Virus record (IMG/VR): IMGVR_UViG_3300020161_000771
Span: 5,311 to 69,310 of that record
Direction: 5' to 3' (one strand)
Source of the DNA: a virus
Taxonomy: Duplodnaviria > Caudoviricetes
Length of the DNA stretch: 64,000 bases
Positions 4,865 to 63,975 of this stretch are shown one piece after another (the first letter of the stretch is position 1; every line of letters begins with the position of its first letter). The notes below the pieces were generated by a model, which saw only the letters and a list, made by a program, of their open reading frames with translations, made no database searches and was not told the origin of the DNA. Position numbers and translations under genes: made by a program.

Positions 4865-5457
4865 ACCAATAAGTTATGATATTCTTTAAAGTGTTTGATT
4901 CTGTCAGCTAGACCAATAGTGCCACCATTTACTCTTTTCGTAATCTTAGTTACTATATCGTCTGAAGACCCTTGGTCAGATATTGTATTCAAACCATTCT
5001 TAGACCAAAACCATGCAGCAGACAACAAAGGATACTTAGTAGAAACCAAATCAGGATTAGCTAGGATATTATCTTCAACAGTCTTATCAAAAGCTGTGTA
5101 GTTATCCTTACCTGTTAATTGAATATAACCTCTCCCTCTGAATTTAAAACCATCTCCACTAGCTTGATTCCCGTTACCCATTCTATTTGCGTAAACGATA
5201 TTAGCAATCTTCTCAGGCTTGCGTTCAAACTCTTTAGCACTTATTGGAGTAAAATACTTCTTGAAGATATTTGTTAAGCCTTTGGCACTATAGTTTAAGT
5301 TTTCTGATACTGCTCTAAAGCCACCTGACTCATGCCCTGTTTGAGCTAAAAAATGAGCCAAACGCAATGGAGTATTAACACCAAATTTTTCAGAAACTAA
5401 AGGAATCTGAGCTATAACAGAATCTGGAATGTGTCCTTTTAGTTTATCTAGTTTCAT
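4861..5457 (-). CDS. Endolysin, glycoside hydrolase family 19
   Basis: RLAHFLAQTGHESGGF, FRGRGYIQLTGKDNY, SAAWFW, ITKRVNGGTIGLADR. Confidence 0.92.
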   Translation of the reverse strand: MKLDKLKGHIPDSVIAQIPLVSEKFGVNTPLRLAHFLAQTGHESGGFRAVSENLNYSAKGLTNIFKKYFTPISAKEFERKPEKIANIVYANRMGNGNQASGDGFKFRGRGYIQLTGKDNYTAFDKTVEDNILANPDLVSTKYPLLSAAWFWSKNGLNTISDQGSSDDIVTKITKRVNGGTIGLADRIKHFKEYHNLLV

Positions 5458-60171: not shown

Positions 60172-60381
60172 ATGGAAAACCAATCTGTCTACGAAGACAA
60201 GGCTTTATTAGAAGCCTTTGAGCAATTCGTTCTAGAAAACCAAACATCTGTACCTGCTATGATGGATATAGTTGGGAAGAATGCTGTATATCTAGTATTT
60301 GTAAGCGGGTATATGTCAGCGCTAAATTTTGTTAGCGGTAGTATTAATGATGAGTTTTCAAAAATCCAATCAGTATTATGA
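60172..60381 (+). CDS. Hypothetical protein (69 aa)
   Basis: Track ORF downstream of a promoter. Confidence 0.7.
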   Translation: MENQSVYEDKALLEAFEQFVLENQTSVPAMMDIVGKNAVYLVFVSGYMSALNFVSGSINDEFSKIQSVL

Positions 60382-60632
60382 TTTACAAAGTATTCAGCGA
60401 CATCGACTTCGATGGCACGCACACATCTGACACCCAATCAGTATCTAGTTTAGATGAAGCATTGGACCTATATAGACAAGTGTTCACAACAATGGCTGAA
60501 ACAATCGTAGATTGTGGAGGCTCATTAGTTACAATGCTGTATTCAATAGACGATACCGATAAGATGGTAATCATCAAAAGAAATACATTAGACACAACAG
60601 TAAATATCTTATCAGATGTCCAACATCAATAA
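60378..60632 (+). CDS. Hypothetical protein (84 aa)
   Basis: Track ORF, ATGA-coupled. Confidence 0.65.
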   Translation: MIYKVFSDIDFDGTHTSDTQSVSSLDEALDLYRQVFTTMAETIVDCGGSLVTMLYSIDDTDKMVIIKRNTLDTTVNILSDVQHQ

Positions 60633-60837
60633 CCTTCACATTGCTGCGACTTTGGCCAAGGAAGTAGAGCATTTGTCTAAATGCACTATGATTGGTCAAG
60701 TATTTTTTAAATCTATACCAGAGCATTACGTTTACGACAAAGAATATGTAATACACAATTACAGGATTGGTATCCACCATTCTGACGGCATATATCTACT
60801 AGACGTAAGAGGTGTAGGACTTTTCCAAGTCATGTAA
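60616..60837 (+). CDS. Hypothetical protein (73 aa)
   Basis: Track ORF overlapping its neighbour. Confidence 0.6.
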   Translation: MSNINNLHIAATLAKEVEHLSKCTMIGQVFFKSIPEHYVYDKEYVIHNYRIGIHHSDGIYLLDVRGVGLFQVM

Positions 60838-60847
60838 AACTATCATC

Positions 60848-61240
60848 ATGAATCACATGAATTTAATTAACCCGTACATATATCCTGGTATACGGGGCAA
60901 AGATTTGCCAAAAGGATTCACAAGGCTAATCAGGTTATCGAGCGGCAGGGTAACTCACGATGATATCGTAGCTGCGGTCACAAATGTAATGAACATCACG
61001 TTTGATGAGATGAAAGCTACACGCAGAAAGCAAGAATTGGTTGATGCTAGACGAATATATTGTTATAACGTAAAGGTTAGACTAGGGTGGACGTTAGTTG
61101 ACATAGGTAAAAAATTGTCATCAAGAGACCACACAACTATTATACATAACATCACTACGTATTATGACTTATATAAGACTAATGATATTTTCAAAGAAAA
61201 GGCCGATTGGGTGACAGAGGAGCTAGAATGGAAACCTTAA
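60848..61240 (+). CDS. Stand-alone DnaA C-terminal (domain IV) HTH protein
   Basis: RRKQELVDARRI...LVDIGKKLSSRDHTTIIH mirrors the DnaA pattern ARQxAMY...IG..FG.RDHTTV.H. Confidence 0.8.
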   Translation: MNHMNLINPYIYPGIRGKDLPKGFTRLIRLSSGRVTHDDIVAAVTNVMNITFDEMKATRRKQELVDARRIYCYNVKVRLGWTLVDIGKKLSSRDHTTIIHNITTYYDLYKTNDIFKEKADWVTEELEWKP

Positions 61241-61437
61241 ACTATTATTTAGAAAATGGAATGGTGGTATTCACGGAACAGTTCCTACTTAACAGAGGAT
61301 TCTGCTGTGGTCGTGGATGCCGCCATTGTCCATACAAAGAAAAACAAAATGAACCTATTAAAAAAGATATTCGAGATTCCGAAACCAGAGAAACCTCCGA
61401 TGAGTTACGACCATTCGATAATGACAGCACAGACTAG
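61228..61437 (+). CDS. DUF5522-like Cys-rich small protein
   Basis: YYLENGMVVFTE.FLLNRGFCCGRGCRHCPY. Confidence 0.7.
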   Translation: METLNYYLENGMVVFTEQFLLNRGFCCGRGCRHCPYKEKQNEPIKKDIRDSETRETSDELRPFDNDSTD

Positions 61438-61735
61438 GGATAAAATGCTAGAAGACCTATTCAAGATGCAAAAGGAGATACTATGCAAGAAGGGGTACGA
61501 CTATGCAGGAGAAGATATCCTATCTAATTTCAGGTTAGCTGGCATGATTGTGAATCAGGCGTCAAGTAATCCTGATGCTGTTAATTGCTTGAACTTAGTC
61601 GGCACAAAGGTGGCTAGGCTAGGGCAACTATTAAGTAGCGACAAAGAAGCCTACAATGAGTCAGTACAAGACTCGGTAATTGATTTATGCAACTATGCTG
61701 CATTACTATATTTAATCCTAAAAGTAAAACAATAA
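61349..61735 (+). CDS. DUF1599-like/nucleotide-modification-associated helical protein
   Basis: KKGYDYA.EDILSNF...KVARL...ESVQDSVIDLCNYA; start likely MNLLKK at 61349. Confidence 0.6.
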   Translation: MNLLKKIFEIPKPEKPPMSYDHSIMTAQTRDKMLEDLFKMQKEILCKKGYDYAGEDILSNFRLAGMIVNQASSNPDAVNCLNLVGTKVARLGQLLSSDKEAYNESVQDSVIDLCNYAALLYLILKVKQ

Positions 61736-61736
61736 C

Positions 61737-62015
61737 ATGGCAAAGAACAAAGAAAGAAAAACAGAAGTAAGTGAAATAGCTACAATGACAGGGGAAGATA
61801 AGTATGATGCTATCGTATCCCTAGTTACAATCAACAACTCTATTGAGGTTATTGAAAAGATGTATCTAGATTTCCTACTTAACAATGAGAATACCGATAA
61901 GATGAAGAAAGAGTATGATACTATCGACGAAAAAGACAGGATCCCTTTTGAAGCATATTGCTTTTTAAGATACTCAAAAGCATTAACAGACTCACTTAAA
62001 AAATTAATCATTTAA
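61737..62015 (+). CDS. Hypothetical protein (92 aa)
   Basis: Track ORF packed between neighbours. Confidence 0.65.
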   Translation: MAKNKERKTEVSEIATMTGEDKYDAIVSLVTINNSIEVIEKMYLDFLLNNENTDKMKKEYDTIDEKDRIPFEAYCFLRYSKALTDSLKKLII

Positions 62016-62016
62016 A

Positions 62017-63018
62017 ATGAATCATGCTAGCTTGTTTTCAGGAATCGGTGGGTTTGATTTAGCTGCACAATGGATGGGGTGGAATAATGTATTTCATTGT
62101 GAGTGGAACCCATTCGGTCAGCGAGTATTAAAATATCATTTTCCAAATTCAATTTCATACAATGACATTACCGAAACAGATTTCTCTATTCACAGAGGAA
62201 CAGTTGATATCCTTACGGGAGGATTCCCATGCCAACCATACTCAGTCGCAGGGAAACGTCTTGGCAAAGCCGATGAAAGACACCTCTTTCCTGAAATGCT
62301 ACGAGTTATTAAAGAGGTCCAACCTAGGTTCGTCGTGGGCGAAAACGTTCGTGGGCTTGTTAGTTGGAATGGAGGAATGGTCTTCAATGAGGTGTGCGCT
62401 GACCTGGAAAGCCAAGGATATGAAGTACAGCCGTTTATTATTCCAGCTGCAAGCGTCAACGCCCCGCATAGAAGGGACAGAGTGTGGTTTGTTGCTTACT
62501 CCAACGACGAGGGAAGAGGTAGTCGACCTACAAAAGTTCAAGGAGAGAATGGAGAAGTATCCCAACGGAACGACGATGCCAAATCTAGCAACACAGGTAG
62601 CATCATTACTGCCGACACCTTCGGCATTCGATTGGAACACGGCGCGCAAGGAGGAGACATTCATGGCAGCAAAGGCTCGTCACAAGTTAAAGGGAGTGAA
62701 TTTACAGAATCCATTGAAGCAGATGGCTGTATTAGGTATGCTACCGACACCGAAGGCGCAAGAATCGAGAGGCAACGCATCGAGAGACAGAGGCAAATTC
62801 AATCTAACGGACGAGGTAGCGAGAATATACGAGCCAAGTTCCAAGACTTCCCAACTAAACCCCCTATTTGTGGAGGAGATGATGGGCTTCCCAGAGAATT
62901 GGACTCTATTACCTTTTCTAAGTGGAGAATGGAATCAATAAAAGCCTACGGGAATGCCATTGTACCACAGGTTGCATACAATATATTTAAAGCAATAGAT
63001 TTATTTACCAAACAATAA
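62017..63018 (+). CDS. C5-cytosine DNA methyltransferase, large (alpha-like) chain
   Basis: Motif I LFSGIGG, IV GGFPCQPYS, VI ENVRG, VIII HRRDRVW, X KAYGNAIVP. Confidence 0.93.
   Translation: MNHASLFSGIGGFDLAAQWMGWNNVFHCEWNPFGQRVLKYHFPNSISYNDITETDFSIHRGTVDILTGGFPCQPYSVAGKRLGKADERHLFPEMLRVIKEVQPRFVVGENVRGLVSWNGGMVFNEVCADLESQGYEVQPFIIPAASVNAPHRRDRVWFVAYSNDEGRGSRPTKVQGENGEVSQRNDDAKSSNTGSIITADTFGIRLEHGAQGGDIHGSKGSSQVKGSEFTESIEADGCIRYATDTEGARIERQRIERQRQIQSNGRGSENIRAKFQDFPTKPPICGGDDGLPRELDSITFSKWRMESIKAYGNAIVPQVAYNIFKAIDLFTKQ
62162..62941 (+). CDS. Nested +1-frame ORF, probable second (beta-like) chain of the methyltransferase
   Basis: 259 aa; three (L)LxTP repeats; LNPLFVEEMMGFPENW resembles motif IX, which is absent from the main frame. 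Confidence 0.7.
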   Translation: MTLPKQISLFTEEQLISLREDSHANHTQSQGNVLAKPMKDTSFLKCYELLKRSNLGSSWAKTFVGLLVGMEEWSSMRCALTWKAKDMKYSRLLFQLQASTPRIEGTECGLLLTPTTREEVVDLQKFKERMEKYPNGTTMPNLATQVASLLPTPSAFDWNTARKEETFMAAKARHKLKGVNLQNPLKQMAVLGMLPTPKAQESRGNASRDRGKFNLTDEVARIYEPSSKTSQLNPLFVEEMMGFPENWTLLPFLSGEWNQ

Positions 63019-63024
63019 CCCAAC

Positions 63025-63291
63025 ATGAATACAGCAATTCAATACATCATAACTATGGAGGCAATGTTAAATCAAAACGACTTCCATTCATGGCTTATGG
63101 ATAACAGGTCTAACCTACTAGAACTAGAAAAGAATCAGATATCAGAAGCTATGATGTACGCATTTGACGAAGATGGGCATACAGGGACGTGGAAGAAGGA
63201 TGTTATAGATAAATACTATAATGAGAAGTATGGCAATGGAAAGCTGTATAATGTACCAGGACATAACAATAATATAAAAGATATAATATAA
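63025..63291 (+). CDS. Small hypothetical protein of the TAI/TAVEWL-like Bacteroidota-phage family
   Basis: MNTAIQY...LEKNQISEAM...YYNEKY. Confidence 0.7.
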   Translation: MNTAIQYIITMEAMLNQNDFHSWLMDNRSNLLELEKNQISEAMMYAFDEDGHTGTWKKDVIDKYYNEKYGNGKLYNVPGHNNNIKDII

Positions 63292-63296
63292 ATACC

Positions 63297-63536
63297 ATGA
63301 CAGCAATAGACTATTTAATAAAAGAAATGAGTGCTCTTTACGACAATAAAGACATCAGTGATACAGATAGAAATGATTTAATAGTAGAGTTAACAAAGGC
63401 AGCTAAGTTTAAGGAAAGATTTCAAATAGAAGATGCTTATAGATTTGGCAAGTTGAACTGCTATCAGGTAACCAATGGAGAGACCGGCAACATAACAGCT
63501 ACCGATTACTACGAAGACAAGTACTCGGATGTCTAG
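63297..63536 (+). CDS. Small hypothetical protein, paralog-like of 63025..63291
   Basis: MTAIDYL...KERFQIEDAY..G...DYYEDKY. Confidence 0.7.
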   Translation: MTAIDYLIKEMSALYDNKDISDTDRNDLIVELTKAAKFKERFQIEDAYRFGKLNCYQVTNGETGNITATDYYEDKYSDV

Positions 63537-63684
63537 TTTTTAATATAAAAAACAAGACAAAGTGCATGTGTTTTTTGGAAAAATTCATGCAAAAACAATG
63601 GGGTATTTTACAAATAAAGTGTCTTAAAATGCACTTTTTACTACACTTTTATCCTTTTTATGACACATTACAAACAAATAACCT

Positions 63685-63975
63685 ATGAAACTATATACAG
63701 AAGAACAAGTAAAAGAAGCCTACAATAGAGGGCATATGGATGGTAGATTAAATAATATAGACTATTCTATAACAGATGGTTTAACACCAATAGAACTACC
63801 AAGTGATGAGGATATAAAAAATAATTCAGAACACTTTGAATATACTGATGGTGTTTATGGATTTAAAGAAGGTGTTAAATGGATGAAAGAACAAATACTT
63901 AGGAAAGAAGATAAAACATTTAAGAAAAAGTCACAATGGACAGAAGTAGATAATATGACTAGACGCTTAAAATAA
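63685..63975 (+). CDS. Small hypothetical protein (96 aa)
   Basis: MKLYTEEQV...IELPSDEDI...GFKEGVKWMKEQI, a recurrent phage pattern. Confidence 0.7.
   Translation: MKLYTEEQVKEAYNRGHMDGRLNNIDYSITDGLTPIELPSDEDIKNNSEHFEYTDGVYGFKEGVKWMKEQILRKEDKTFKKKSQWTEVDNMTRRLK

Follow-up and report, generated by a model that had tools for sequence, protein, structure and literature searches.

Two-chain cytosine-5 (C5) DNA methyltransferases are treated as rare, M.EcoHK31I being one of two exceptions (PMC3404938). M.EcoHK31I (Escherichia coli HK31, YGGCCR; Lee, Kam and Shaw 1995) consists of two polypeptides, of which beta is encoded by a second reading frame that lies entirely inside the gene for alpha (PMC2836561, PMC3404938). 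Silent removal of the beta start codons from the alpha gene abolished methylation, co-expression restored it, and the N-terminal part of beta is needed for association with alpha (PMC2836561). The target-recognition domain (TRD) is assigned to alpha, and only motif IX to the 176-residue beta chain (PMC2836561, PMC3404938). In M.AquI, one chain has motifs I-VIII together with a portion of the variable region, and the other has the rest of the variable region and motifs IX-X (PMC3404938). Here we describe a C5 methyltransferase locus in 64,000 nucleotides of DNA from a virus of the Caudoviricetes (positions 5,311 to 69,310 of the IMG/VR record IMGVR_UViG_3300020161_000771; this whole stretch is called the window), in which one open reading frame (ORF) encloses another:

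62017-63018, plus strand: alpha ORF, 333 residues; catalytic chain of a C5 DNA methyltransferase, in which a linker connects motifs I-VIII to motif X
62162-62941, plus strand: beta ORF, 259 residues; wholly within alpha, in the +1 frame; putative DNA-recognition chain

An earlier note on this DNA, made from its letters, had claimed two overlapping ORFs, and we confirmed both at these coordinates, with 333 and 259 residues. In the ORF list, the beta ATG lies 145 nucleotides 3' of the alpha start on the same strand, which places beta in the +1 frame. We propose, with a probability of roughly 85%, that the locus encodes a two-chain C5 DNA methyltransferase from one DNA read in two frames, in the manner of M.EcoHK31I. 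As in that enzyme, the alpha gene contains the whole of beta, on one strand and in a second frame, and the motifs are likewise split between the two chains.

The alpha chain matched the methyltransferase profile PF00145 with an E-value of 1.6e-47 (163 bits; cut-off 22), phrog_363 with 2.6e-73, and TIGR00675 with 154 bits (cut-off 100.65), the last over residues 4-174 only. A profile built from alpha relatives aligned alpha residues 5-165 to residues 16-175 of M.HhaI, spanning motifs I-VIII (E-value 9e-30). The parts of alpha were mapped as follows:

62035-62052, plus strand: motif I, FSGIGG, S-adenosylmethionine (AdoMet) binding; at the mapped position, with invariant columns in relatives
62221-62238, plus strand: motif IV, GFPCQP, with the catalytic Cys72; beta reads the same bases as ...SHAN...
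62338-62355, plus strand: motif VI, GENVRG; at the mapped position, invariant in relatives
62467-62490, plus strand: motif VIII, HRRDRVWF; at the mapped position, invariant, within the M.HhaI alignment
62503-62871, plus strand: linker, residues 163-285; frame open, protein not conserved
62950-62970, plus strand: motif X, GNAIVPQ; directly 3' of the beta stop codon

All five motifs that the earlier note had read in frame 1 (I, IV, VI, VIII and X) were thus found at mapped positions, and they are invariant across 46 relatives. Its statement that alpha has no motif IX between motifs VIII and X also held, as both the TIGR00675 and the M.HhaI alignments end before that part. In the AlphaFold2 (AF2) model of alpha, residues 1-164 and 313-333 are confident, the C-terminal helix having a predicted local distance difference test score (pLDDT) of 81-91, and residues 165-312, with a pLDDT of 24-42, are predicted to be disordered. 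Foldseek searches with this model matched M.HhaI and M.HaeIII at an E-value of 1e-14, over about 165 columns only, and the stretch between motifs VIII and X gave no alignment between distant relatives. Neither the profiles, the model nor the conservation of the linker placed a TRD and motif IX between motifs VIII and X of alpha. Since alpha aligns to the known enzymes over about 165 columns and its middle is predicted to be disordered, the model suggests that alpha is a complete large domain with its motif X helix on a disordered tether of about 125 residues. The alpha model also matches PDB entry 3g7u, a putative methyltransferase of the E. coli prophage CP-933R; should the gene for 3g7u likewise contain a nested beta ORF, the crystal structure of an alpha-type chain would already be available.

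The beta chain matched phrog_1008, which is annotated as 'DNA methyltransferase', with an E-value of 6e-24 over residues 13-248, and its matches in the ESM Atlas are unnamed clusters only, mostly viral. We divided the chain into the following parts, the last of which is shared with alpha:

62291-62476, plus strand: beta N-terminal domain, approximately residues 44-105 (SWAKTF, EEWSSMRCALTWK); overprints alpha motifs V-VIII; doubly constrained zone 1
62489-62854, plus strand: three tandem LPTP modules of about 40 residues each, starting at 62489, 62606 and 62738
62855-62905, plus strand: motif IX-like segment LNPLFVEEMMGFPENWT, beta residues 232-248, assigned by conservation and a weak M.HhaI match
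62872-62941, plus strand: doubly constrained zone 2; alpha residues 286-308 (CGGDDGLPRELDSITFSKWR) over beta residues 237-259 (motif IX and tail)

The N-terminal domain is predicted to form two helices and a hairpin; no relative differs at W73 or S75, and C46, C78, W82 and R91 are nearly invariant. The three (L)LxTP units noticed in the earlier note were located at beta residues 110 (LLLTPTT), 149 (LLPTPSA) and 193 (MLPTPKA). We found that the modules are mutually homologous, with hhalign P-values of 9e-10, 2e-8 and 4e-12, as compared with 0.28 for a control segment. The motif IX-like segment was likewise recovered where it had been noticed, at residues 232-248; L232, F236 and M240-G242 are invariant among relatives, and the tail that follows it, LPFLxGExNQ, is conserved.

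The two frames are each kept open and conserved, and purifying selection acts on both. The conservation of the nested ORF, on which the earlier note had made its proposal depend, was evident from its being open in all 67 unique viral relatives and in 76 of 80 loci from bacterial genomes. To assess chance, the protein of one frame was held fixed and its codons were resampled synonymously, using the codon usage of the non-overlapped parts. Upstream of motif VIII (112-149 codons), the beta frame stayed open in the resampled sequences with a probability of about 0, and through the linker (106-208 codons) the alpha frame did so with a probability of about 0.0002; each of these frames is open in 67/67 of the unique relatives. 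Chance is thus excluded as the cause of the nested overlap.

The pattern of substitutions shows which frame is selected in each part. In the alpha-only 5' part, the mean pairwise variation at codon positions 1, 2 and 3 was 0.19, 0.13 and 0.47. Within the linker the maximum (0.55) falls on alpha position 1, corresponding to beta position 3, and the amino-acid divergence is 0.68 for alpha versus 0.51 for beta. Over the last 23 beta codons the variation is low at every position (0.22/0.09/0.21), and 3' of the beta stop the variation at alpha position 3 goes back up to 0.51. The diversity at four-fold sites of alpha was 0.55 outside the overlap, and, in comparison with these non-overlapped sites, it was reduced to 0.41 over beta residues 1-60 (p 0.008), 0.27 over residues 61-113 (p 2e-4) and 0.09 over residues 237-259 (p 3e-4). 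Comparison with close relatives gave a similar picture. In the linker, 15 of the 17 differences from L004 are synonymous in beta and one in alpha, and among the 42 differences from L005 the corresponding numbers are 24 and 4. Relative to L005, the alpha-only part has a substitution density of 12%, as compared with 6% over the N-terminal part of beta and 0% over motif IX, and zone 2 has zero differences from L004-L006 and one from L003. Residue W73 of beta is kept even though the overlying alpha residues differ, being MV in the window and LG in the Paenibacillus larvae phage Bloom. Taken together, these data show selection on the alpha frame at either end and on the beta frame in between, with two zones selected in both.

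The nested layout is widespread. In phage Bloom, BLOOM_56 and BLOOM_57 correspond to alpha and a +1 nested beta; in the P. larvae phage Shelly, the +1 nested beta is annotated as 'g55 internal gene'; in the E. coli phage K1ind2, an 'Mte8-like protein' (1076-1873) is nested in the +1 frame within alpha (988-1917); and a +1 nested pair is annotated in the Xanthomonas phage PhiXhv-18. The Bacteroides phage BS-TP4 (PQ571277, L085:1313-2431), which has been isolated and published, has a +1 nested beta ORF of 372 codons within a gene for a 440-residue methyltransferase. Over residues 13-248, the window's beta chain and the nested protein of Bloom share 33% identity; the alignment of this beta to the nested protein of K1ind2 had an hhalign probability of 97.5%. 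The alignment of the two alpha chains of the window and Bloom is limited to motifs I-VIII, the linker being unalignable. A word-based search retrieved 1278 beta homologues, and an exhaustive HMMER search retrieved 4356 clusters at 50% identity; the cellular homologues come mostly from Bacteroidota. The first set of 82 loci was made up of 80 uncultivated viral contigs and the records of two Paenibacillus phages. All 82 have beta in the +1 frame and motif X in that of alpha, and the +1 nested layout is intact in 81, the alpha ORF being broken only in L076. An intact nested pair was also found in 76 of the 80 bacterial-genome loci, mostly of Bacteroidota. Since the layout occurs in more than 150 independent loci, a sequencing error or a pseudogene is ruled out as its cause. 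The nearest relatives of the window (L003-L006; 90-99% beta identity) are uncultivated viral genomes on IMG/VR contigs of 17-68 kb, the longest of about 67-68 kb, and the window is probably most of a phage genome of about 67-68 kb.

The earlier note had also stated that standard annotation would miss the second chain, and this is correct only in part. The GenBank record of BS-TP4 lists the outer gene alone; on the other hand, the records of the Paenibacillus, K1ind2 and Xanthomonas phages list both genes, and the gene callers applied to metagenomes yield more than 4000 beta clusters. Phrog_1008, the 'g55 internal gene' of Shelly and the 'Mte8-like protein' of K1ind2 are beta homologues likewise nested in the +1 frame, and their annotations go no further than 'hypothetical protein' or 'DNA methyltransferase'. 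We found no functional description of these nested genes in the literature; the paper on the P. larvae phages names two methyltransferase genes but says nothing of nesting. Nor did we find an account of the nested design as a broad phage family.

A start codon that would allow separate translation of beta is conserved. All 67 unique relatives have a beta-frame ATG at the position equivalent to that of the window or upstream of it, and in 57 of them it lies at that position or one codon upstream; where alpha reads YE in place of YND, the beta ATG is displaced by one codon. Shine-Dalgarno sites inside the alpha coding sequence precede the nested ATG of Bloom (GGGAGGTG, 9 nucleotides 5') and of K1ind2 (GGAG, 6 nucleotides 5'). 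We propose that beta would be translated separately from its own ATG, 145 nucleotides downstream in the +1 frame. Alpha would supply the catalytic large domain, that is, motifs I-VIII and the motif X helix, and its linker would need only to stay open. Beta may supply in trans what single-chain enzymes have between motifs VIII and X, namely a recognition (small) domain built of LPTP repeats and motif IX, and its N-terminal domain probably docks onto alpha. The two chains would then assemble on DNA as an orphan phage methyltransferase, which may protect the phage DNA from host restriction.

This proposal shares several features with described enzymes and departs from each of them. Motif IX appears to be located in beta as in M.EcoHK31I, here judged by its consensus and the weak M.HhaI match, and the N-terminal part of beta, which in M.EcoHK31I serves association, is conserved. 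Unlike in M.EcoHK31I, the stretch between motifs VIII and X of alpha appears to be an unconstrained, disordered linker, and in the 259-residue beta an N-terminal domain is followed by three LPTP repeats and by motif IX. The locus also differs in that it is most likely an orphan gene of a phage, outside any restriction-modification pair. Thus, the M.EcoHK31I-like architecture claimed in the earlier note stands as regards the nested second frame, the conservation and selection of both frames and the motif IX-like end of beta; it does not extend to target recognition, as the target-recognition part would be in beta here and the literature puts the TRD of M.EcoHK31I in alpha. That difference is drawn from the published description of M.EcoHK31I and not from its sequence, and one may speculate that its 176-residue beta also carries recognition elements. 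Like M.AquI, whose two chains must assemble, the enzyme would be split in the variable region and would depend on assembly; unlike in M.AquI, motif X remains part of the catalytic chain, and one gene is nested inside the other in a second frame. Alpha resembles M.HhaI and M.HaeIII in its predicted fold, motifs I-VIII and a GNxVP-type motif X, and the C-terminus of beta resembles M.HhaI residues 268-302. Unlike in those enzymes, the small domain would be on a separate chain and the catalytic chain would bridge motifs VIII and X by a disordered linker. The nested two-chain design is known from M.EcoHK31I, and the probable recognition part in beta and the broad spread in phages appear to be new.

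Several observations weigh against the two-chain proposal. No Shine-Dalgarno site for beta was seen in the window, and none is expected, the window being of the Bacteroidota type. In the search against solved structures, the sole matches of beta were to residues 268-302 of M.HhaI, the motif IX segment, and they were weak (E-value 0.7). The AF2 model of beta alone, made with 72 homologues, reached a pLDDT of 56 and a predicted template-modeling score of 0.26 and hence does not support a fold for beta or its equivalence to the small domain; such a poor model fits a subunit that folds on its partner, and it proves nothing. In addition, the switch of the codon periodicity from alpha to beta and back to alpha would also be compatible with a product of two frameshifts. 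In that case, a programmed +1 shift after motif VIII and a -1 shift before motif X would yield a single chain with the order I-VIII, TRD, IX, X restored. Selection does switch between the frames exactly at the borders that this would require, a T-run (CCTTTTC) lies just 5' of the beta stop, and fused variants exist in the databases (P0280, beta with motif X; P0286 and P0020, alpha with beta). We discarded the T-run as evidence for a slippery site because both protein sequences force it, so that it is not independent evidence. A double frameshift would not need alpha to be open across the 106-208 codons of the linker, nor beta to be open over the 112-149 codons 5' of motif VIII, as they are in 67/67 relatives against resampled probabilities of about 0.0002 and 0. 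Moreover, purifying selection acts on the beta residues 5' of the point at which the shift would occur, the ATG of beta is conserved and preceded by Shine-Dalgarno sites in Bloom and K1ind2, and the tail past motif IX is conserved. Given these data, we regard the frameshifted single chain as very improbable. Among the longer proteins searched, we found no genuine in-frame single-chain relative, only long multi-module betas and a few frame-fused variants. For example, in P0280, beta runs in frame into motif X (...GFPESWTNIDPSRIKSLGNAIVPQM), which, whether natural or artefactual, illustrates a single-chain IX-X junction, and in P0286, a natural or artefactual fusion, the alpha linker frame runs into the last beta modules.

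Another explanation is that the nested ORF is a non-functional by-product of the alpha sequence, or an artefact, and that alpha alone is the enzyme. Part of the similarity among beta N-termini is indeed forced by the alpha motifs, PCQ being read as (S)HAN for example, and profile scans of beta found no family for it in Pfam or NCBIfam. In the linker, however, it is the beta frame that holds the codon periodicity and the synonymous substitutions; beta is 33% identical across phyla where the alpha linker is unalignable, and its homologues form the 4356 clusters mentioned above. Alpha, for its part, has no conserved TRD or motif IX. We consider this explanation barely credible and prefer the two-chain methyltransferase.

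If the enzyme has two chains, each LPTP module might in addition act as an independent target-recognition unit, making the enzyme multispecific or modular like the multispecific Bacillus phage methyltransferases; this had been suggested in the earlier note. The TRDs of multispecific phage C5 methyltransferases are similar in size to the LPTP modules of about 40 residues, and the modules are homologous repeats whose number ranges from 1 to 10 among database relatives, with a mode of 3. The median length of beta increases by about 40 residues with each added module, and this, together with the range in number, supports the gain and loss of modules among beta relatives. On the other side, the LPTP cores and flanks are nearly invariant across relatives, which equally suits structural repeats, and specificity determinants would be expected to vary. 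The search against solved structures returned no match of beta to known TRDs. We consider multispecificity an unlikely addition to the two-chain model.

The genes around the locus are of the phage replication type, together with small unknown ORFs. Those upstream are:

60848-61735: genes for a protein with a DnaA C-terminal helix-turn-helix domain (PF08299, 1.3e-15) and a DUF5522 Cys-rich protein (6.8e-18)
within 60848-61735: a protein with a weak match to DUF1599, 'nucleotide modification associated domain 1' (0.0025, below the Pfam cut-off)

In the ORF list, 61207-61437 and 61256-61735 overlap by about 180 nucleotides, probably only as a result of upstream alternative starts. No restriction endonuclease was recognized among the nine flanking ORFs scanned (60378-63975), which makes an orphan methyltransferase with an anti-restriction role the most likely reading of the enzyme.

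We also noticed that 16 of 154 unique relatives (L166:1840-1870, L167, L168, L175 and 12 others) have a poly-G tract of 9-15 G in the dual-coding zone. Its position corresponds to 62363-62380 of the window, which has no such tract and reads TGGAATGGAGGAATGG (alpha SWNGGMV, beta LVGMEEW). Where the tract is one base short, in L166/L167, L168 and L175, alpha motifs I-VI are fused to beta from residue 73 to its end, and the rest of alpha is open in its own frame. The same fusion is seen in the database proteins P0020, P0032, P0041 and P0060. These fusions represent either homopolymer sequencing or assembly errors or slipped-strand phase variation of the enzyme.

With 4356 clusters at 50% identity, the two-frame layout first known from M.EcoHK31I is no longer a single curiosity, as thousands of genes in phages and prophages have it. 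It is also a large case of true dual coding, in which about 780 nucleotides are read in two frames and zones of about 190 and 70 nucleotides are selected in both. Gene callers that forbid nested genes give one chain per locus, and methyltransferase annotation and specificity prediction are thus systematically incomplete for this family. Natural split methyltransferases serve as templates for targeted-methylation tools (PMC2836561), and a family with its whole recognition domain on a separate chain would offer a cleaner split. A further idea, which we put forward tentatively and think rather unlikely, is that beta is a free-standing, repeat-built DNA-reading subunit whose module number sets or multiplies the target specificity of a constant catalytic chain, with the alpha linker as a 'free' track for module change and, maybe, the poly-G tract as an on/off switch in some relatives. 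If this is true, cytosine methyltransferases would have a system of modular specificity that extends over phages of at least three bacterial phyla and in which the overprinted alpha linker would let beta gain, lose and change modules without harm to alpha.

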